A stretch of DNA of 64,000 nucleotides from Candidatus Enterousia intestinigallinarum (GTDB lineage: Bacteria > Pseudomonadota > Alphaproteobacteria > Rs-D84): positions 10,794 through 74,793 of the forward strand of contig DVJI01000013.1 in NCBI GenBank assembly GCA_018716885.1. The letters run 5' to 3'. Below are positions 279 through 63,518 of the stretch, one piece after another. Each line of letters starts with the position of its first letter. Position 1 is the stretch's first letter. A program made the position numbers and the translations under genes. The notes under the pieces are model-generated. The model was given only the letters and a program-made list of their open reading frames with translations, had not been told where the DNA came from and made no database searches.

Positions 279-640
279 TCATAATAACACAGTACAGATG
301 CTGCCGACGATAAATCATATTCGAATTCCCCCGTTTCATCGGCATATTTCATACCTTTGCTAACACCAATATAACAGGATGCCCTAGTACTTGTCCCGCC
401 AGCAGACGATACCGCCAATGGTTCACCAGTGGCGACAACTGTTATCCCAGAATCAGGACACTTTGAACAATAACTCCGTCTTGGCAAAACCGTTCCATCT
501 ACCAAATAAAAATATCCTGAATTACAACTGGTATAATCACGATAATATTCCTGGCATACAGAAGGTGGCCGCACAATACTTATGGAATATGCCGAACTTG
601 TCCCAAGTATCCCAATCAGTAAAACCAGTAATCTTTTCAT
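275..640 (-). CDS. Small secreted Cys-rich protein, family member 1
   Basis: Signal peptide MKRLLVLLIGILGTSSAYS. RBS ggggga upstream. Motifs CNSGYFY, CSKCP, SCYI, and C-terminal CYYE. Confidence 0.55.
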   Translation of the reverse strand: MKRLLVLLIGILGTSSAYSISIVRPPSVCQEYYRDYTSCNSGYFYLVDGTVLPRRSYCSKCPDSGITVVATGEPLAVSSAGGTSTRASCYIGVSKGMKYADETGEFEYDLSSAASVLCYYE

Positions 641-657
641 TTTATTCTTCCCCCATA

Positions 658-1020
658 TTAGTTACCAGAAACCTGACGACACATAGTACACATAGCCGAT
701 GTTCCAGACGTTGTTGAACGCCGTATATAGCACTCCCCCGTATTTTCCGTCGGGGCACAAGACGAATAATATTGGTTATATTCGCCACGCTCATCAGATT
801 CTGCTGCCGCTGTACGTGAACAAGTTTGTACACCACTGGTGTTGGTTGTTAAACTCCAGCCATCTGGACACGACAAAATTGTTCCTGTATATCCGGCCTC
901 GCAACAATATCCACTGAAACAACTGCCCAGACATTGGGACAAATCATTACATATCTCTGCATACGATATATACGGCCACCCAGAAACCAAGCCCAACAAA
1001 AATAAAAACCTTATTTTCAT
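658..1020 (-). CDS. Small secreted Cys-rich protein, family member 2 (divergent)
   Basis: Signal peptide MKIRFLFLLGLVSGWPYISYA. RBS agggg. Motifs CEAGYTG, SCPDG, GECYI. In tandem with member 1. Confidence 0.5.
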   Translation of the reverse strand: MKIRFLFLLGLVSGWPYISYAEICNDLSQCLGSCFSGYCCEAGYTGTILSCPDGWSLTTNTSGVQTCSRTAAAESDERGEYNQYYSSCAPTENTGECYIRRSTTSGTSAMCTMCRQVSGN

Positions 1021-1123: not shown

Positions 1124-1216
1124 ATGCCGAAAACAAACCACCGATTAAAATCGGTGTTTTTATTTTTGAAAAAATCCCGAATTTCTGCATTTTTTTACTC
1201 TCCATTTTTGCCGAAT
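1124..1216 (+). repeat. Conserved 93-nt 5' cassette, copy A (identical to 8584..8676)
   Basis: Exact 93-nt identity to the copy at 8584. Contains hairpin caccgatt-aaa-atcggtg followed by tttttattttt. Confidence 0.9.
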
Positions 1217-5818: not shown

Positions 5819-6056
5819 AAAACAAACCCTTTGGCTTTAACTCTGTTATCCTCTGACCCGCTCCCCGATTCGTACTTTAATTGTTGCACAAAAATCCCTG
5901 TTGTCAAGTTTTATTGATTTATATTCATATCAAAACGCCCAACAGTATTTCATATGATCCGGCAAAGATTCCCATAAATTATTTGGGCGCACCGCCACCG
6001 ATTGTGTTATAATTGACACTGACGACAAACTATAAATTTTTAAGGACGGAAAAACT

Positions 6057-7004
6057 ATGGACTATAAAGATTTTGGACTGGTGAACACAAAAAATATGTT
6101 TTCAGATGCACTGGCACGTCACTATGCTGTGCCGGCATTTAATTTTTACAATATGGAAACTTTGTCTGCAATTATTGACGCCGCACGCGACACGCACAGT
6201 CCCGTTATTCTGGCAGTATCTGAATCGGCATTAAAATATATGAGCGATAACTTATTGCGCGGTATGATTTGGGGCCTGAACCTGCACGATGACGATGCCG
6301 TTGCCCTGCATCTGGATCACGGGTCGTCATTTGACGCGTGTGTGCACGCAATAGAAATCGGCTTTTCATCTGTTATGATTGATGGTTCAAAACTGCCGTT
6401 TGATGCAAATGTCGATTTGGCACGCACGGTCGCGGAATATGCTCACAAATACGACGTCACAGTGGAAGCAGAACTGGGCGTTCTGTCTGGAATCGAAGAC
6501 GAAAATACACACAGCACAACATCCAGTTACACAAACCCCAACGACGTAGTCAACTTTGTAAATGCAACGAACATCGATTCATTGGCGATTGCAATCGGCA
6601 CCAGCCACGGCGCATACAAACGTAAATCAGACGATGAAGAATTACGCTTTGACATATTGGACGCGGTGGCGCGGCAACTGCCTGATTTTCCGCTGGTTTT
6701 ACACGGCGCGTCCAGTATTCCGACACACTTTGTTAAAACAATAAACGAATTTGGTGGCAAAATGTCAAACGCCCGCGGAATTGCCCCAGCGCAACTGCGC
6801 CGTGCGGTGGAAAAAAACATCTGCAAAATAAATGTGGACAGCGATTCCCGCTTAGCATTCACCGCTGGTGTTCGCGAAGTATTGGCAACAAAACCAGAAA
6901 ACTTTAACCCACGTGACTATCTGGGTGCAGGCCGCAAAAATATCTATGATAATTGCGTTGATGAAATCAAAAATATTATGGGCTCAAACGAAAAAACGAA
7001 ATAG
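6057..7004 (+). CDS. fba: Fructose-bisphosphate aldolase class II
   Basis: HLDHG and the class II aldolase fold. RBS aaggacgg. Confidence 0.9.
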   Translation: MDYKDFGLVNTKNMFSDALARHYAVPAFNFYNMETLSAIIDAARDTHSPVILAVSESALKYMSDNLLRGMIWGLNLHDDDAVALHLDHGSSFDACVHAIEIGFSSVMIDGSKLPFDANVDLARTVAEYAHKYDVTVEAELGVLSGIEDENTHSTTSSYTNPNDVVNFVNATNIDSLAIAIGTSHGAYKRKSDDEELRFDILDAVARQLPDFPLVLHGASSIPTHFVKTINEFGGKMSNARGIAPAQLRRAVEKNICKINVDSDSRLAFTAGVREVLATKPENFNPRDYLGAGRKNIYDNCVDEIKNIMGSNEKTK

Positions 7005-8532: not shown

Positions 8533-8561
8533 TTGCAATAATACAGAAAATTACATATAAT
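8533..8561 (+). promoter_or_regulatory. Sigma70-like promoter (TTGCAA-N17-TATAAT)
   Basis: Near-consensus hexamers with 17-nt spacing, about 20 nt upstream of the conserved cassette. Confidence 0.55.
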
Positions 8562-8583
8562 TAAATAGCATAAGAAAATATAT

Positions 8584-8676
8584 ATGCCGAAAACAAACCA
8601 CCGATTAAAATCGGTGTTTTTATTTTTGAAAAAATCCCGAATTTCTGCATTTTTTTACTCTCCATTTTTGCCGAAA
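8584..8676 (+). repeat. Conserved 93-nt 5' cassette, copy B
   Basis: 100% identical to 1124..1216. Confidence 0.9.
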
Positions 8677-9267
8677 AAAATTGGTCAATTCATATCAGCG
8701 ATAATAATTGCCACAACAATCGCAACGCCCGCTATGGCGTTCAAAGATTACAAATGCGGCTGTGGTTCACACTCTGATTTATATAATCGCCCGACCTGCT
8801 ATGCACCGCCAGATTATTTAACAGAATACTGTATAGTAAGTAAAACAAACGATACATTCACATACCGTGTACCAGACGGTATCAACGCCAAAGCGTGCAG
8901 TTTATGCTGGTGCTACGGATATACCGACAGCTGGCGTAGCGGTACCAATGGCGCCCTTGTCCGTACCGTATATACAGCCAAAGACACAAGCGCCACCCAA
9001 TGCGACTATTCATATGAAGACGAAGCCGCCTGTAATTCTGGATATTATGGATTACACGAGCCAGATTTCATGGTATACGCATGCGAGGAATGCCCATGGC
9101 TAGAAGATAAATACGGCACAATGCTGCACGGTTGGACAGAATACGCGAACACAAACACCGATATTACAGATTGCTATATAAGAAAAGAAGATACAGCCAC
9201 CGGTGTATGGTTTGAAGATGACACGGGTCAATACGCGATAACCGATGATTGTTATTATTCACTGTAA
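8584..9267 (+). CDS. Small secreted Cys-rich protein, family member 4
   Basis: ORF-track ATG at 8584. Alternative TTG start at 8668 gives signal peptide MPKKIGQFISAIIIATTIATPAMA. Motifs CNSGYYG, CEECP, ITDCYI, C-terminal DCYYSL. Confidence 0.6.
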   Translation: MPKTNHRLKSVFLFLKKSRISAFFYSPFLPKKIGQFISAIIIATTIATPAMAFKDYKCGCGSHSDLYNRPTCYAPPDYLTEYCIVSKTNDTFTYRVPDGINAKACSLCWCYGYTDSWRSGTNGALVRTVYTAKDTSATQCDYSYEDEAACNSGYYGLHEPDFMVYACEECPWLEDKYGTMLHGWTEYANTNTDITDCYIRKEDTATGVWFEDDTGQYAITDDCYYSL

Positions 9268-9328: not shown

Positions 9329-10447
9329 TTACATACGCATCGGCATCAATACGAACAATGCGTCTGTGTTTTTATCCGTTGACTTGATGATTGTCGGCGA
9401 TAACGGATCCTGCATTTCCATTTGGAATTTTTCACCTTCTACCTGTCCAGCAACATCCATCAAGAATTTTACATTAAACACAACCGTAAATGAACTGTCA
9501 CCATTGTATTCAATATCCAGTTCCTGGGTTGCAGTTCCGGCATCCGGGCTGGACGCATTTACAACCAACTTGTTCATAGAAAATGTCAACTGTACGGACT
9601 TGGTCTTGTCCACACTGGCAACCGACACCAAGTCAACCGCATTCAAGAACTGTTTTCTGTCCAGGATTGCAATCTTGTCATTACCCTTTGGAATAACAAC
9701 CCGATAGTTCGGATACTGTGCATCAACCAGTTTGCTGGTCAATGTTGCGGGGCCAACCGTAAAACGGGCCTTGGTATCCGACAGTTCAACAGTAACATCG
9801 TCAACAGTCGCATCTTCCAACAGTTTGGACAGTTCACCAATAACGCGACGTGGCAAAATAACCGCTGGCATTTCCGCACTGCCCGCCGGTGCCGGCATCG
9901 CGCACAACGCCATACGCTGAGCATCGGTTGCAACCGCAGTCAGCATTTTTTCTTTGCCCTCGTCAGAGATATGAAAATAAATCCCGCCCAAATGATAACG
10001 GACATCATCGGTCGGTATTGCAAACTTTGTCTGATTTATCAGGTGCGCCAAGTCACCAGTTGTCATTTGGAATTTTGTGGTCAGATTGCTGCCCGCCATT
10101 GCCGGGAAATTTTCCGCCGGCAGTGTCGGCAAATGGAACACCGCACGACCACTGGACACAACCAGTTGATCACCAGATTGTTTGAACGAAATTTCCGCAT
10201 CGTCTGGCAATTTACGCACAATGTCGTACAACATTTGTACCGGGACAGTTGTTTTCCCACCCAAAGTTATATCTGCGGCAACGTGCTCTACCAATTCCAA
10301 ATCAACGTTTGTTGCCGACAGAATCAAATCGTCTGCAACCTCTATCTTTACATTTACCAATATCGGCAGCGTTGCGCGCTTTTCCACAATCGACTGCATA
10401 TGCCCCAGCGCACGAATTAAAACCTGACGAAATACTGAAAATTCCAT
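9329..10447 (-). CDS. dnaN: DNA polymerase III beta sliding clamp
   Basis: 372 aa with three-domain clamp architecture. Confidence 0.9.
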   Translation of the reverse strand: MEFSVFRQVLIRALGHMQSIVEKRATLPILVNVKIEVADDLILSATNVDLELVEHVAADITLGGKTTVPVQMLYDIVRKLPDDAEISFKQSGDQLVVSSGRAVFHLPTLPAENFPAMAGSNLTTKFQMTTGDLAHLINQTKFAIPTDDVRYHLGGIYFHISDEGKEKMLTAVATDAQRMALCAMPAPAGSAEMPAVILPRRVIGELSKLLEDATVDDVTVELSDTKARFTVGPATLTSKLVDAQYPNYRVVIPKGNDKIAILDRKQFLNAVDLVSVASVDKTKSVQLTFSMNKLVVNASSPDAGTATQELDIEYNGDSSFTVVFNVKFLMDVAGQVEGEKFQMEMQDPLSPTIIKSTDKNTDALFVLMPMRM

Positions 10448-11380: not shown

Positions 11381-13480
11381 CTATCCCCCTATACTGTTAT
11401 TGTTTAATATATTGTTCACTAATTCGGTCACCGACGTATCCATCCATTGCGGGTCATCACGCCGACGCGGCGCCCCACGTTCCAGTGCTGTTTCGCACGG
11501 ATTATCATCGGCCAGCCAATTTTCCAACAAGTCACCCGCCAACAATCCAACGCCGGCACCGGCAACCAGTCCTATGCCACCAGTAAACGGCGCCAACAAC
11601 AATCCTATTCCTGTGGCAGATGCAACTTTACCTGCAACGGCGGCACCACTTATTTGAATTGTTGGTTCTGCCAGATTACCAGTTATTTCTATTGAATTTA
11701 CCACATTACCCGTCAGCGACAATTTCAACCCACGCACCGGAACCGTGGTCAAGGCCAGTTGAATATCTTCATCACCCAAATCTAAACTGCCCGCCAGACG
11801 AACATTTATTGCGTTTGTTTCCACGGCAACGCCGTTTTGCGTTTCTATCAACCCGTCACGCAACTTGGTGTTCACAGACACACAGGATATTTTTATCTGG
11901 TTATACTTTTTTTCTGAACGGAACAAATCCTGAATACTATGCCGCAATGTTGTCAGGAAATCGGTTCCATACATATTGGCAACCAAAGCCGAATGCGCAT
12001 ATCCAGGCGCAGACGAATATACACGTACCGGTCCGGTCACTGTCTGCATCAGTTCGGATAAGTTTGTTCCATTAGCTTCGACATACGTTTCAAAATCGAC
12101 TGGCAAATCGGAAATAAAATTATCAATATGAATCTGGTTTAACAGTGTCCCGATAACTATACCGCGTCCCTGCCCGCCCATTTGCACATACATACGCCCG
12201 TCTGCATCAATATCGACATTTGCCGCTGCACGAACGGGACCGTCCGCAATTTTTACCGCCGCATCAACACGTCCGTGTCCATTATTCACTGTCACTGTTG
12301 CATCAACATCGCGCAGGTTAAAATCACGATACACGATGAAATTATCCAACAAAACGTGCAAATCCAGATTGAACTTCAAAAATTCGGCCCCAAACAAAGG
12401 TATATCGTGAAACACATTTAATTCCCTGTCTGGACGTACCCAGGGTCGGCCGTATAAATCCGGGAAAAGTTCCAACAGATTTATAGATTTTGATTCCAGT
12501 GTCGCCGTAATATTCGGCATTTTTCCAGACCAGTCAACCACCCCCGAAAACGCCAACGTATTTCCACGAACTTTTATCGACGAATTGCGCAGTGATAATT
12601 TTTGCCAATCATAGCCGCCAGAAATATTCACCTTGACGGCCGGCATCTGGGTCAGGTTCAAGTTAAAAATATTCCCCAGCGCAGTCGTATCCGGAATATC
12701 GCCCTTTATTATAAAATCAATTGGTGCCTTGCTGGTACCTTCCAGCGCGACGTTTGCAATCAACGCATCCCCGCCGGTTGCAAACGCAATACGAACCGGA
12801 TATACGCGCCGTTCAGCATTATATTTTGAAAAAGACAATATAAACGGAAAAACATCAGCATTTGATTTAATCCAACCGCTGTATTCGCGCGTATCGGTAC
12901 GTGGCATATATCTGATTTGAAATCCGTCCAACGAATATTCAGCCCCCAATATATCAATATCCAGATTTTGAACCTCTAACCCGCCAAGTCCCGGATCAAC
13001 AAACGGAAAATCCGTCGGACCGACAGCACCCGGTGTTGCGGCGGCTTCCGATGAAGCGTCTTTTATTTTTGGCGCAATGGAAAATTCGCCCTTGTCATTT
13101 TGTTCTATACATATAGACGCGTCATAAATTTTGATATTTTGAATTGTGGGCCTGTCTTGAAACAGCGATATCAAATCCAAACGTACGTCTATTTTTTCCG
13201 CACTAAAGGCATCTTTGTGCCTTGCCCAGGCAGCATTTGGAATCCGAACCTGGTTTAATTCGATCTGGGGACGCAGTGACAATTTCCACGAAACCGCGCC
13301 ATCAATTTCCACGGGCAGACCGGTGGCGTCCTGCAGTACAGACAGAACATCACCACGCAACGCTTCTAAATTTATCTGTGACAAAGCAATTATAACGGCC
13401 ACCACCAACCCCATTACGAACAGGGTCAGCACCCGCATAATTTTGAAAAAGGTTCCTTCTTTTTTCTTTTTTTTGGCCAT
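11381..13480 (-). CDS. AsmA-family outer-membrane biogenesis protein
   Basis: 699 aa. N-terminal TM anchor and an AsmA-like N-domain. Sits 7 nt upstream of cdaA. Confidence 0.55.
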   Translation of the reverse strand: MAKKKKKEGTFFKIMRVLTLFVMGLVVAVIIALSQINLEALRGDVLSVLQDATGLPVEIDGAVSWKLSLRPQIELNQVRIPNAAWARHKDAFSAEKIDVRLDLISLFQDRPTIQNIKIYDASICIEQNDKGEFSIAPKIKDASSEAAATPGAVGPTDFPFVDPGLGGLEVQNLDIDILGAEYSLDGFQIRYMPRTDTREYSGWIKSNADVFPFILSFSKYNAERRVYPVRIAFATGGDALIANVALEGTSKAPIDFIIKGDIPDTTALGNIFNLNLTQMPAVKVNISGGYDWQKLSLRNSSIKVRGNTLAFSGVVDWSGKMPNITATLESKSINLLELFPDLYGRPWVRPDRELNVFHDIPLFGAEFLKFNLDLHVLLDNFIVYRDFNLRDVDATVTVNNGHGRVDAAVKIADGPVRAAANVDIDADGRMYVQMGGQGRGIVIGTLLNQIHIDNFISDLPVDFETYVEANGTNLSELMQTVTGPVRVYSSAPGYAHSALVANMYGTDFLTTLRHSIQDLFRSEKKYNQIKISCVSVNTKLRDGLIETQNGVAVETNAINVRLAGSLDLGDEDIQLALTTVPVRGLKLSLTGNVVNSIEITGNLAEPTIQISGAAVAGKVASATGIGLLLAPFTGGIGLVAGAGVGLLAGDLLENWLADDNPCETALERGAPRRRDDPQWMDTSVTELVNNILNNNSIGG

Positions 13481-21084: not shown

Positions 21085-22566
21085 TTATTGGATACCGACG
21101 CGGAACTCATCGCCCCAGCCGGCCACTACCTGGCCGCCTATGGTGCATTGTATGTCTTCAAACCCGTTTTCTACCTGGTTCTTTTTTACTACATTACTGG
21201 TTATCAGACCACCGGCCGTACCCAATACAACCCCAGCAATGGAATCAGATAACAGACGCGATGTGTTAAAGTTGCCTTCTTCATTACGCCACACCGTCAG
21301 CTTTAACCCAGACGCTATATCATCCAGTTTTGATACTGCGCTTTCTATACGTTCCCGCGCCACTGCCTGTTGGTCTGTTGTTACAGTTGTTGTACTAGAT
21401 GCGCTGCCACCACTGGTTGTTGCATCGACACAGGCGGTACCTTCGGGATTAAATGTTTTACCAACCTCCATACAATAACACTGACCCGTTGTATAATTCC
21501 AGTTTGCACCAGTTATCAGCAAACATTTCTGAATTGCCGGATTCATTGCACAAACACTGCCGTTCCAAGAATACTGCTGATTGGTGCAACGACACTGTTT
21601 ATTCACGTCATCCCAATACGCGCCCGATGCGATACTGGCCTGCGATGTGCATTTTTGTTGCAATGCGGCCGCATCGGTCAAATCACATCTGTCGCCATTG
21701 CGTACATAATTTACATCATCCAAACATACACAGACATTATTTTCCACACGCAGATTTTTTGCACTGTCGCAAGCACACGCGCCGCCCGTCCACACTCCGC
21801 CGGAATTTTCACAGGCCGCCTTGCGTTGCTGGTTCAGGCGATTATTTTCCTCCTCGCGACGTCTGCGGTTTTCTTCATCTATAACAGATTGCTTTTTATT
21901 GCACTGCTTAGCCGTGGCATCAAATTCATAATCGCTGCTGATACATTCACAGGCCCCGCCACCGGAAACCAAACGCAGATTTTTTGCACTGTCACAAGTA
22001 CACGCGCTGCCCGTCCACGCTCCGCCGGAATCGACACAACGCTGCTCGCGATTATCTGCTATACATTCTGTTTTGGCGGCATTCGGCATATAACCAGAAT
22101 TGCATTTTACATATATACAGGATGCCCGACCAATAAAGGCCTCCAAATCACCCAAACTAAATGAAGAAGTCGCGACACCGTCAATACGGTATGTTTTCTT
22201 TGCATTAATTAAACTTATACCACCAAGACCACTGCCCGATTGTAATTCCGAATCTTTACAAAAATGTCCCGGCTCATAATTTACAAATTTATTTGTGAAC
22301 CCGGTTGAACATTGGTACAAACCAACTACATCCCCAACCCCGTCAAGATACGGGACAACTTCATCATCACTGCAGGAATTTGGCCCTGGCCCGCAAAACC
22401 AACACTGATTACCCCCAATATCAGCGGTAAGCCAAGCATTAGGATCGAAGAAACTTGTATCACCACAACTTAACAAAGTGCATTTTGCATCCGCATTATG
22501 TGGCAGAACCGCAAATCCGCACAATATCACTACGAACAACAATAATTTTTTCATATTCTCCCCCAT
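21085..22566 (-). CDS. Large secreted Cys-rich repeat protein with a C-terminal hydrophobic anchor
   Basis: Signal peptide MKKLLLFVVILCGFAVLPHNADA. A CNSGY motif. Two near-identical CENSGGVWTGGACACDSAKNLRV repeats. 37 Cys. Confidence 0.6.
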   Translation of the reverse strand: MGENMKKLLLFVVILCGFAVLPHNADAKCTLLSCGDTSFFDPNAWLTADIGGNQCWFCGPGPNSCSDDEVVPYLDGVGDVVGLYQCSTGFTNKFVNYEPGHFCKDSELQSGSGLGGISLINAKKTYRIDGVATSSFSLGDLEAFIGRASCIYVKCNSGYMPNAAKTECIADNREQRCVDSGGAWTGSACTCDSAKNLRLVSGGGACECISSDYEFDATAKQCNKKQSVIDEENRRRREEENNRLNQQRKAACENSGGVWTGGACACDSAKNLRVENNVCVCLDDVNYVRNGDRCDLTDAAALQQKCTSQASIASGAYWDDVNKQCRCTNQQYSWNGSVCAMNPAIQKCLLITGANWNYTTGQCYCMEVGKTFNPEGTACVDATTSGGSASSTTTVTTDQQAVARERIESAVSKLDDIASGLKLTVWRNEEGNFNTSRLLSDSIAGVVLGTAGGLITSNVVKKNQVENGFEDIQCTIGGQVVAGWGDEFRVGIQ

Positions 22567-22702
22567 TTATGCCGAAAATAAAGGTTGGTTTATTTTGGCA
22601 CCATAAACTCACATTTATTAGTTGTATTTTATCATATTTTCTGCGTAATTCCAATATTGAATTTATATCATATAAAAAAGCGCCGCGTTCGCGGCATAAC
22701 TT

Positions 22703-27455: not shown

Positions 27456-27977
27456 TTATTCGGTATAATAACACTTTGGATCATATACAAAAGAACCAGT
27501 TGAATCAGATCCTGATGCAATATAACAATCTGTTATTTTTGTACTGCCCGCAGTGGACATTCCGCCGTCTGGACACCTTGTGCAGTTTGCACTGGTTGGC
27601 ACAGTGATACTTGTAGTCAGATTCACACCATAATACCCCATAGTACATCGTACTTGATATCGTGGTGAACACTCACACGTTAAACGATTTTGAGAATAAC
27701 TGGAAATCTTATACTGCCACCCTGTCCCGCCAACACGCCAAATATTTGACACTGTTGGGCACGGATCACAATCGGGGTCATCAATATCACCCCCGCCAGG
27801 GTCAGGCGTTGGACATCCCGCTTGTTCACAGGTTTCTGTTGACAACCGGCAACAAGGGGCCGAACCAGCCGTCACAGGACATTGAATAGAATATATTCCC
27901 GAACAAGTTCGCCCAACGGCATCGGCAACAAACGCGCACGCAACTGCTGCGCTGACAATAAAACAGCTACATTTCAT
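27456..27977 (-). CDS. Small secreted Cys-rich protein, family member 5
   Basis: Signal peptide MKCSCFIVSAAVACAFVADA. Motifs CTMGYYG, CTRCPDGG, ITDCYI, C-terminal KCYYTE. Confidence 0.6.
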   Translation of the reverse strand: MKCSCFIVSAAVACAFVADAVGRTCSGIYSIQCPVTAGSAPCCRLSTETCEQAGCPTPDPGGGDIDDPDCDPCPTVSNIWRVGGTGWQYKISSYSQNRLTCECSPRYQVRCTMGYYGVNLTTSITVPTSANCTRCPDGGMSTAGSTKITDCYIASGSDSTGSFVYDPKCYYTE

Positions 27978-28000
27978 TTTCAATTCCCTTTTGTTTTTGT

Positions 28001-28030
28001 TAAACAAAAAACCGCCACGGAATTGGCGGT
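28001..28030 (-). terminator. Intrinsic terminator on the minus strand
   Basis: Minus strand reads ccgccaattccgtggcgg + ttttttgtttt. Lies about 35 nt upstream of the member-5 start codon. Confidence 0.5.
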
Positions 28031-28291
28031 CGGGGATTGAAAAATCATATTTAGGAATGACCCCGCGATTTTTATGGTTTCCCACTGTTGTATAATCGCG
28101 AACCCCCGACCGGTTAAACAGTCGGGCGATAAAACATACGGCGCAAACCCGCGCCGACGCTTTGTCAGTCGGATTACAATGCGATAACCGCATTGCCTAA
28201 ATACAGGATTTTTCAGGTCCCGAACCCAAATCCCTTTGGATTCAATATTCAGTATATTTTAACGTTCCAATAAAAACAAGACATTTAATCA
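28031..28291 (-). ncRNA. Candidate small RNA (unclassified)
   Basis: 260-nt structured, non-coding stretch bounded by two intrinsic terminators. No ORF and no RBS. Confidence 0.2.
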
Positions 28292-46672: not shown

Positions 46673-46748
46673 GGGTGCGTAGCTCAGTTGGTAGAGCAAC
46701 TGACTCTTAATCAGTGGGTCCAGGGTTCGAGTCCCTGCGCGCCCACCA
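46673..46748 (+). tRNA. tRNA-Lys (CTT)
   Basis: GGGTGCG/TAGCTCAGTTGGTAGAGC/ACTGACTCTTAATCAGT/.../GGTTCGAGTCC/CGCGCCCACCA. Anticodon CTT. Confidence 0.85.
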
Positions 46749-46786
46749 CAAACATAAACCGCAACGCGGTTTTTTATTTTTGTATT
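46749..46786 (+). terminator. Intrinsic terminator after tRNA-Lys
   Basis: aaaccgcaacgcggttttttattttt. Confidence 0.6.
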
Positions 46787-46902: not shown

Positions 46903-46960
46903 AGGGAGTCCCTGCGCGCCCACCACAAACATAAACCGCAACGCGGTTTTTTTATTTTTA
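46903..46960 (+). repeat. Direct repeat of the tRNA-Lys 3' end plus terminator (att-like scar)
   Basis: gagtccctgcgcgcccaccacaaacataaaccgcaacgcggtttttt is repeated about 174 nt downstream of the intact copy. A degenerate T-arm fragment (ccagggttcgac) lies between the copies. Confidence 0.7.
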
Positions 46961-62850: not shown

Positions 62851-63357
62851 TTAATTAATTTCAATCTCTTCTTCAACCTCTTCTTCAAAAGAATCAGAAT
62901 CATCGTAACGGCAATCTTCTGAAAAAACATAACTGCCAGCACTGTCCGCACATATGGCATCAACGCCATAATAACACCCTGTTATACCTGCGCCTTCGGT
63001 ACTGTGCGGACCACGAAGACACCCATTCAACGTCGGACAATCCAAACACTGGGCCAATATTCCCACCATTCCATTGTGATATTGCCCATCTTCACAAACC
63101 AACTCTTCTTCAATGCATTCACAGGTGTCTGGGTCCACTGTACCAAAACATATTTTTGCTGGGTCACATACACATTCAAGTGCATCTGCATCCCAAACCT
63201 TGCCATCGCCACAGTCTGGTTCAACCTCTCCCATACAATAATCGGGGTCATATTCACATTGCAAACAACTGGCACCTGAATATTTCACACATTTATAGCA
63301 ATCTGGGCATACCGTATCCACCGCCACAGATGCACCCGTTGAAAAACCAATCAACAT
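62851..63357 (-). CDS. Cys-rich acidic protein (related to the Cys-rich family)
   Basis: 26 Cys. GITGCYYG motif. C-terminal poly-Glu tail. Weak signal peptide. Confidence 0.4.
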   Translation of the reverse strand: MLIGFSTGASVAVDTVCPDCYKCVKYSGASCLQCEYDPDYCMGEVEPDCGDGKVWDADALECVCDPAKICFGTVDPDTCECIEEELVCEDGQYHNGMVGILAQCLDCPTLNGCLRGPHSTEGAGITGCYYGVDAICADSAGSYVFSEDCRYDDSDSFEEEVEEEIEIN

Positions 63358-63518
63358 AATAAACCCACCGATTTATTTCGGCACAACAGAAAGGAATAAA
63401 AATGCAGTTTTTCAGTGTTTTCAAAACAATAAAAACACCGATATTAATCGGTGGTTTATTTTCGGCATATCTTTTGTGTACATTATATCAATCTGTGCGC
63501 CCCACCCGCAAGACTTTT

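Follow-up and report, generated by a model that had tools for sequence, protein, structure and literature searches.

Why two diverged genes for cysteine-rich (Cys-rich) proteins should begin with the same stretch of DNA is the question raised by a repeat in the genome of Candidatus Enterousia intestinigallinarum. A preliminary description of the 64-kb stretch analyzed here (hereafter, the window) had read this repeat as a 93-nucleotide (nt) cassette that might encode a shared export signal, act as a transcriptional switch or serve recombination between family members. The cassette is a non-coding leader, not the N terminus of a protein. It belongs to an element of about 107 nt that is a genuine and well-supported candidate for a cis-regulatory RNA, a new leader with no Rfam family that probably throttles the expression of secreted Cys-rich proteins. 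On balance, we favor the reading that it is transcribed as the 5' leader of secreted-protein genes that form a regulon-like family, combining a transcription attenuator with masking of the start codon.

Copies of the leader and their genomic setting

The window holds three copies of the element: copy A (1124 to 1230, + strand, about 107 nt), copy B (8584 to 8690, + strand) and copy C (63362 to 63468, − strand, beginning at 63468). The limits of copy A, which is non-coding until the start codon at 1208, were set by a full-length nhmmer match and an alignment. The repeat is real, but the identity between A and B given earlier as 93 nt is exact over 92 nt (1124 to 1215 and 8584 to 8675). It ends at both edges, with a T at 1216 facing an A at 8676 and different bases at 1123 and 8583; a repeat finder joins 1110 to 1237 with 8570 to 8697 at 89% identity. 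The flanks are unrelated: the 60 nt before the repeat are 53% identical and the 100 nt after it 55%, both at background level. Copy C is 84% identical to A and B across the first 92 nt. The 29-nt core of hairpin and T-tract occurs three times in the window, while none was expected from 100 shuffles, and the third occurrence (63425 to 63453, − strand, 2 mismatches) was absent from the preliminary description. An assembly artefact is excluded, since the B locus is recovered at 100% identity, up to 6.7 kb, in independent human-gut assemblies.

The preliminary description had held that a cassette unique to the two loci would point to a recent simple duplication. The repeat is not limited to them: at least 25 distinct copies were found in metagenome-assembled genomes (MAGs) of related gut alphaproteobacteria and in human-gut metagenomes, many of them on human-gut metagenome contigs. 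This total combines a genome scan, a metagenome scan with a pattern that left the hairpin unconstrained, and contexts retrieved through protein homologs; the relatives' loci carry L-numbers below. The scan of one genome per species gave 8 more copies, in two uncultured alphaproteobacterial MAGs (CALXMQ01 and CALXML01). One related MAG has five copies of the leader and one assembly has seven. One named relative of the copy A protein belongs to Candidatus Enterousia intestinigallinarum, whose genus lies within the Alphaproteobacteria. The order of this genus, Rs-D84, is an uncultured alphaproteobacterial lineage of animal guts with genomes of about 0.75 to 1.0 Mb and a reduced metabolism (PMC12306168).

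A promoter-like site precedes the element everywhere. All 25 copies that were scored have a sigma70-like site with 8 to 11 of 12 matches, and its −10 box ends 7 to 24 nt upstream of the ATGCCG that opens the element, most often 12 to 13 nt. The site of copy A is TTGACG-N18-TAAAAT (1082 to 1111, + strand; −10 box end 12 nt before the element), that of copy B is TTGCAA-N17-TATAAT (8533 to 8561, + strand, from a consensus scan) and that of copy C is TTGCGG-N18-TATAAT (63482 to 63511, − strand). The two independent promoters described before were thus both recovered by the scan, that of B with the N17 spacer given for it and that of A with N18 instead of N17.

Wherever the downstream region was read, it holds a gene for a product with a signal-peptide-like N terminus. 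Cys-rich proteins with the ending CYY(S/T) make up most of these products, while those of L001, L002 and L014 form a different secreted family. In the window, copy A is followed by a gene for a secreted Cys-rich protein with no Pfam family (1208 to 1657, + strand; MPNPIGGFLTLLTPKANA...CYYS), copy B by one whose product has a textbook signal peptide (8668 to 9267, + strand) and copy C by another Cys-rich protein gene (62851 to 63357, − strand, ATG at 63357). A Pfam search with seven downstream proteins gave no match above the cut-offs, only weak TNFR- or ELAPOR-like ones.

A multicopy sequence of about 107 nt with inverted repeats (Seg1 and Seg3, below) could be a miniature mobile element, of the MITE (miniature inverted-repeat transposable element) or REP (repetitive extragenic palindromic) kind, that spread through the genome. 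Partial remnants upstream of two promoters would suit this origin, which we nonetheless consider very improbable: orientation and placement between promoter and secreted-protein gene do not vary among the copies read, no target-site duplications and no copies in other intergenic or genic contexts were seen, and conservation is asymmetric, reaching 11 nt beyond the 5' inverted repeat only. The hallmarks of MITEs or REPs (varied contexts and orientations, terminal inverted repeats and target duplications) were not found. The remnants correspond to the 3' part of the cassette (GCCGAAnnnAAtCGGTCG) and are found immediately before the promoters of copy A (1029 to 1060 of the window) and L004 (5608 to 5679), which suggests past tandem arrangements or recombination.

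Coding potential and the real start codon

Open reading frames (ORFs) from the ATG of the cassette do exist in copies A (1124 to 1657, 177 aa) and B (8584 to 9267, 227 aa), and from them a shared 31-aa N-terminal peptide with a possible role in export had been proposed. This proposal fails in the other copies, where the frame of the 5' ATG is mostly broken by stops or frameshifts. It is open into the gene only in A, B, L001, L002, L004 and L021; elsewhere, it meets a stop after 8 to 48 codons, or the ATG is out of frame with the gene. Where the upstream ORF is not fused to the gene, its length varies from 8 to 98 codons. In L005, an ortholog of copy A, a TAA in the hairpin loop interrupts the frame, and in copy C a TGA closes it at codon 16. 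Indels in L011, L023, L024 and L030d shift the 5' ATG out of frame, while an internal xTG (TTG, GTG or ATG) stays in frame. The variable alignment columns are spread over codon positions 1, 2 and 3 as 19, 21 and 17, with the fewest minor alleles at the third position, and the hairpin loop varies freely at positions 1 and 2. Neither the conserved frame nor the codon-position bias expected of a coding N terminus or signal peptide was found.

The internal xTG offers a better start. In 12 copies, it lies at +83 to +85 and shares its frame with the signal peptide. In copy A, the probable true start codon is the TTG at 1208 to 1210 (+ strand; +84), in frame with a signal-peptide-like sequence; in copy B, translation from the TTG at 8668 to 8670 gives MPKKIGQFISAIIIATTIATPAMA/FK, a textbook Sec signal peptide. 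The genes starting at +84 have no Shine-Dalgarno (SD) sequence, while other genes of the window have one. In six copies (L003, L007, L009a, L015a, L017 and L031), the gene begins further downstream, with its own SD and ATG.

Could the cassette still encode a real N-terminal extension, such as a long signal peptide or a pro-peptide? The six open frames named above would allow it, the 5' ATG is the sole canonical upstream start in L002, gene callers annotate from it, and 25 of 26 copies retain it, even though the ORF behind it is not kept. The stops and frameshifts, however, affect most copies, orthologs included, codon-position bias is absent, the 5' ATG has no SD and lies about 5 nt from the predicted transcription start, and a start at the internal xTG yields a textbook signal peptide in B, among others. 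An extension of this kind is hardly credible to us. The genes of the window are probably 1208 to 1657 and 8668 to 9267, whose products would shrink from 177 and 227 aa to 149 and 199 aa. The database proteins P0001 to P0003 begin at the cassette ATG (227 and 177 aa) and thus carry about 28 residues of translated leader. Public gene calls that run through the leader are a systematic mis-annotation in the Enterousia-related lineage.

Some copies carry a very short ORF at the internal start, which in copy C reads GTG CCG AAA TAA (63384 to 63373, − strand). In six of the eight copies with xTG CCG AAA TAA, the signal-peptide frame resumes past the stop without a good canonical start. These variants could represent a built-in OFF or reinitiation state spreading by gene conversion.

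A terminator-like hairpin and its pairing with the start region

The first structured part of the leader is a hairpin, hairpin 1, followed by a U-tract. In copy A, it is formed by CACCGAT and ATCGGTG (1139 to 1156) and the U-tract is TTTTTATTTTT (1157 to 1167), the whole spanning 1139 to 1167 on the + strand; an A-tract at 1130 to 1137 can lengthen the stem. The terminator-like hairpin described before (CACCGATTAAAATCGGTG followed by TTTTTATTTT) was confirmed at 1139 to 1156 and at 8599 to 8616. The U-tract of copy B lies at 8617 to 8627, and copy C has its hairpin at 63453 to 63436 and its U-tract at 63435 to 63425 (− strand). We took as an intrinsic terminator a G+C-containing stem of at least 5 bp with a loop of 3 to 8 nt and a U-rich tract immediately after it. 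Hairpin 1 has this form, with a 7-bp stem that includes 4 G-C pairs, a 4-nt loop and TTTTTATTTT, and the form is present in all copies. In predicted folds, a hairpin lies within the first 55 nt of 25 of 25 copies (−8.6 to −23.5 kcal/mol). Its order of A-tract, hairpin and U-tract is that of the gene-end and tRNA terminators of the lineage, and it lies between the promoter and the start codon, which is at or beyond +84. In A and B, hairpin 1 scores as a terminator on both strands. Its stem-loop (−8.1 kcal/mol) is at the weak end when compared with the gene-end terminators of the window (−10 to −13 kcal/mol).

The near-invariance of the stem partly reflects search patterns that required it. Four divergent copies (L009a, L030d, L031 and L009_4816) rebuild the hairpin from other bases or in another register and keep the U-tract: L009a uses AUGCCGA:UCGGCGU, L030d uses GAAUUCAAA:UUUGGAUUC, and L031 and L009_4816 use GCCG...CGGC. 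A sequence-specific DNA operator, for which the perfect palindrome CACCGATT-AA-AATCGGTG would qualify, was rejected, since the divergent copies keep hairpin and pairing with different sequences. Moreover, the divergent L030d shares its genome (L030) with a standard copy, so that an operator is unlikely and intramolecular pairing fits better.

The order of the conserved parts can be given as a consensus. The 5' part consists of ATGCCGAAAAYAAA, Seg1 (CCACCGATT), a variable loop, Seg2 (AATCGGTG) and TTTTTATTTTT; the 3' part consists of GAAAAAATCCCAGATTTCTGCA-T7, a C-rich motif, xTGCCGAAAnnAAA and Seg3 ((T)CGGTGGTTT). In copy A, the middle segment (1168 to 1204, + strand) holds an A-tract, a weak CAG/CUG hairpin, a U7 tract and the C-rich motif ACTCTCCA. 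The GAAAAAATCCCAGATTTCTGCA-T7 segment folds only weakly into a hairpin in most copies; in L003, L049 and L031, it makes a complete second hairpin with a U-tract. Seg3 of copy A (AATCGGTGGATT, 1219 to 1230, + strand) is complementary to the region of the 5' arm of hairpin 1 (AAACCACCGATT, 1135 to 1146), while in copy B Seg3 is degenerate (AATTGGTCAATT, 8679 to 8690, + strand).

Seg1 is complementary to both Seg2 and Seg3, and Seg2 is in turn complementary to the TGCCGA that contains the start codon. Around that codon (from 1208 in copy A), the repeat TGCCGAA mirrors the 5' end of the element, which duplicates the start region (TGCCGAAAAYAAAC); the likeness is partly explained by the fact that both segments pair with Seg2. 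The RNA is predicted to adopt either of two states, one with two local hairpins and one in which the 5' hairpin region and the start region pair in a single long duplex. This duplex is the minimum free energy structure in 15 of 25 full leaders; for four copies, the folds were also compared with shuffled sequences and had z-scores of −2 to −4. In a 22-copy alignment, Seg1 and Seg3 are paired in 86% of cells, with three double compensatory changes. Only 9 of 500 shuffles match this score, and controls with slid segments reach 20 to 49%. In RNAduplex predictions for 15 copies, 11 have a cognate pairing of −21 to −33 kcal/mol, whereas shuffled partners give about −8 to −12 kcal/mol. For the divergent lineages L009a, L030d and L031, which use different sequences, the own start region is the best partner or close to it, and in L030d and L031 it ranks first. 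The complementarity to the start codon and early coding region that defines a start-masking leader is thus present and kept by covariation, over few independent lineages, since further protein-guided look-ups mostly returned the type II leader described below or known orthologs.

In the mechanism that we favor, transcription would start a few nucleotides upstream of ATGCCG, as the promoter geometry predicts, and part of the transcripts would end at hairpin 1, after about 45 nt, which would amount to attenuation. In the read-through mRNA, the long duplex would mask the start region, that is, the xTG at +84 and the first 7 codons or so, and lower translation; with its 20 to 25 bp, it would also be a possible substrate for RNase III. 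Expression across the family would be set by whatever shifts the balance, be it a protein, ribosomes starting at the 5' AUG or the kinetics of folding. A kinetic scheme in which local hairpins form first and the long duplex later is equally possible. More tentatively, the leader may be a new class of two-state RNA in which the promoter-proximal terminator hairpin doubles as an antisense mask of its own start region and the 5' AUG mimics the real start. Ribosome loading at the 5' end, or some other factor, would then decide read-through and unmasking, giving one switch for the whole secreted Cys-rich repertoire of a gut symbiont with a reduced genome.

Several observations weigh against attenuation with start masking. 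No antiterminator able to form before the terminator is complete was found: the only conserved segments that compete for the terminator arms, Seg3 and the second TGCCGA, are found 50 to 70 nt downstream of the U-tract, and as Seg3 comes after the terminator there is no classical co-transcriptional antiterminator. The leader revealed neither a sensor (aptamer, regulatory leader peptide or protein-binding site) nor membership in an Rfam family. Hairpin 1 has no compensatory changes among standard copies, and all three double changes in Seg1:Seg3 come from one lineage, L009a. Pairing of the 5' region with the start region is weak in copy B (−13.4 kcal/mol), L017 and L024; in the six copies with a downstream start, Seg3 does not overlap the ribosome-binding site; and eight copies carry an in-frame TAA directly after xTG CCG AAA. 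The transcription start, actual termination and ON/OFF polarity are all deduced from sequence. The attenuator or premature-termination switch of the preliminary description remains the leading idea for its conserved terminator-type hairpin near the predicted start, while its classical form, with antiterminator and sensor, does not apply. Across the window, no Rfam family reached the gathering thresholds, and a permissive scan of 1000 to 1350 returned AT-rich noise, the best match being WsnRNA46 on the reverse strand (27 bits, for a cut-off of 65).

Other mechanisms were considered and rejected. A classical antiterminator upstream of the terminator does not exist, the competitor being downstream. 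An attenuator on the reverse strand, where the competitor would precede the terminator, was set aside because the orientation of the element is fixed relative to the downstream gene and not to a minus-strand gene. Translational bypassing, of which T4 gene 60 is the example, would take the ribosome from codon 5 (AAC) to the AAC that precedes GGT. The landing site, however, reads ATC or ATT in about half of the copies, and in copy A the nearest AAU landing gives the wrong frame.

Two further explanations keep the leader as RNA and give it another role. The hairpin could be passive, stabilizing the mRNA or insulating it from upstream transcription, for instance by stopping read-through out of adjacent genes, and the complementarity to the start region could be a by-product of internal duplication. 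The hairpin is indeed bidirectional, that of copy C is the sole terminator-like structure after the upstream gene on the same strand, an X-X'...X-X' arrangement would arise by tandem duplication, and strong Seg3 pairing is missing in some copies. We find this rather unlikely, as the whole 107 nt, not the hairpin alone, is more conserved than housekeeping genes and three lineages keep the complementarity to the start region with different sequences. At A and B, insulation would also have nothing to terminate, since the upstream genes are divergent.

Alternatively, the promoter and the first 45 nt or so could form a multicopy small-RNA gene acting in trans as antisense to the start regions of paralogs. 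Each copy has its own promoter, hairpin and U-tail, and the 5' region of one copy can pair with the start regions of others at −20 to −29 kcal/mol. The complementary bases, though, are locked within the hairpin stem of the short RNA, its free 5' tail is identical and not complementary to the start regions, and among the regions read no copy stands apart from a downstream gene, all of which makes a trans-acting RNA quite improbable.

Conservation, gene conversion and comparison with other systems

Is the identity of A and B the result of gene conversion or of strong nucleotide-level constraint, the two possibilities named in the preliminary description? Both are supported. Between the species of the window and the MAG CALXML01, the leader differs by 5.6%, 11.2% and 14.0% at three orthologous loci, while neighboring genes differ by 14.9% (hlyIII-like), 16.8% (thrS), 16.9% (ppa), 23% (tolB) and 27% (dnaN). 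This divergence below that of housekeeping genes argues for strong nucleotide-level constraint on the leader. The promoter spacer diverges by 40 to 58% at two of the three loci and by 3.9% at the C locus. The perfect identity of A and B over 92 nt is, in turn, best accounted for by a recent conversion event between leader copies, on top of purifying selection and not of coding constraint. Three comparisons point to conversion: leader pairs within a genome are 75 to 95% identical, A and B being the sole pair at 100%; the syntenic B-locus leader of another species (L007), which precedes a different gene, is 14% different; and at the A locus of L012, a close strain, 12 changes cluster within the leader and at most 1 falls in the promoter, with the upstream 196 nt being 98.5% identical to the window.

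A small genome thus retains several copies of a 107-nt leader that is better conserved than the adjacent housekeeping genes and that precedes fast-evolving secreted Cys-rich proteins, plausible factors of interaction with a host or partner. If the leader controls expression, it would give a handle on how the organism deploys its secretome and would be a candidate new RNA family for Rfam.

The A locus also varies between strains. About 630 bp of the window (299 to 927) are absent in the close strains L021 and L012, where 1 to 298 joins directly to 928. This segment overlaps two small minus-strand ORFs, one of which (658 to 1020) begins with MKIRFLFLLGLVSGWPYISYA and is Cys-rich. Its absence in these strains makes the locus a strain-variable islet of Cys-rich genes. 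The Cys-rich coding region of copy A (1231 to 1657) is about 6% different from L021 and L012, while its flanks differ by at most 1.5%; it is either fast evolving or recombining.

Such variability would suit a cassette that serves as a homology box, through which the genes of a surface-protein family are switched by recombination or turned ON and OFF, with conversion swapping leader variants, some of which have an in-frame TAA after codon 3. In favor of this are the strain variation of the Cys-rich genes and of the DNA around them, an identity of A and B that no other pair of copies shows, the mosaic leader with the TAA variant at the A locus of L012, and the occurrence of xTG CCG AAA TAA in eight copies. 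We give this scenario little credence, however. Neither silent promoterless cassettes nor an inverted promoter was seen, and conservation exceeds mere homology needs. The copies are direct repeats with essential genes (tolB and dnaN) between them, so that a crossover between leader copies would be lethal. The TAA variant looks ancestral and not like a switch, since it also occurs in distant species with their own SD and ATG (L031 and L003). The expression-site switching of the vlsE or vsp type that had been suggested for the cassette is not supported, given a promoter in each of the 25 scored copies, a complete gene after every copy read and no silent cassettes.

The variable surface systems of Mycoplasma (vsp, vlp and vsa) and Borrelia (vlsE) do share with the cassette an exported-protein family, a conserved promoter-proximal region beside diverged coding sequence and signs of gene conversion. 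They differ from it in that the cassette has neither silent cassettes nor an invertible element, no phase-variable homopolymer was seen in its promoter spacer, and its conserved part is a structured non-coding RNA instead of a signal peptide. Promoterless silent copies or an invertible element around one expression site, as in antigenic variation, were not found; only two short remnants were.

Attenuators and riboswitch platforms (trp, pyrBI and T-box) are closer. Like the cassette, they have a terminator-like hairpin with a U-tract between promoter and start codon and alternative pairings that use a terminator arm, and, as in pyrBI, the terminator lies within a short upstream ORF. Here, in contrast, the terminator is the very first structure and ends about 45 nt from the start, the competitor is downstream and not upstream, and the cassette has no recognizable aptamer, regulatory codons or Rfam match.

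Long-range masking of a translation start is known from the E. coli rpoS leader, from the hok mRNA, with its metastable 5' hairpins and fold-back, and from the leader of the MS2 maturation gene. These RNAs resemble the cassette in having an upstream leader segment complementary to the start-codon region and an early local 5' hairpin that competes with the long-range pairing, giving two states and possibly kinetic control. They have no sequence relationship to it. The 5' hairpin of the cassette is also terminator-like, the cassette has no known small-RNA or antisense partner, and it is multicopy, preceding a whole gene family.

A second type of leader was found within the same gene family. This type II leader precedes a paralogous gene for a Cys-rich secreted protein in the window (27977 to 28135, − strand). 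It also occurs at L030 (about 9800 to 10000), L033 (about 9815 to 10000), L036 (about 9530 to 9753), L038 (about 5960 to 6157), L041 (1 to 69), and L046 and L049 (about 9750 to 10000). The ORF called at 27456 to 28193 is over-extended through this leader, the real start being the ATG at 27976. From 5' to 3', type II leaders consist of a 5' hairpin, a repeated anti-SD segment, a terminator hairpin with a T-tract, the SD and the ATG. The terminator pair covaries (GACC[G/A]CCAA...TTGG[C/T]GGT, followed by the T-tract), and so do anti-SD and SD, which are CUCCUGA/UCAGGAG in some copies and CCCCGAC/GUCGGGG in others. The type II leader is absent from Rfam, its sole match being a sub-threshold one to sRNA-Xcc1 (31 bits). 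As with the cassette, the gene family is the same, the 5' untranslated region has its own terminator hairpin and U-tract, and a repeated 5' hairpin arm is complementary to the ribosome-binding region. Unlike the cassette, type II leaders are about 160 to 200 nt long, have the terminator near their 3' end and mask a classical SD (UCAGGAG or GGGG) and not the start codon and early codons; no sequence homology between the two was detectable. Since paralogs carry the type II leader, regulation by structured leaders appears to be general in the Cys-rich family.

A short relative of the 5' hairpin of the leader, GCCAAAATAAA-CCAACC-TTTATTTTCGGC, lies at 22571 to 22603 (− strand) and has no U-tract. 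It is directly upstream of the SD and ATG (22554) of another secreted Cys-rich gene (21085 to 22554, 489 aa). Elsewhere in the window, a segment (46729 to 46781) with the 3' end of a tRNA-Lys gene (46673 to 46748) and the terminator of this gene recurs 177 nt downstream, at 46906 to 46958; the two are 96% identical. In L046, a tRNA 3' end is duplicated in a similar way around 12300 to 12530, and both duplications may be scars of integrative elements.

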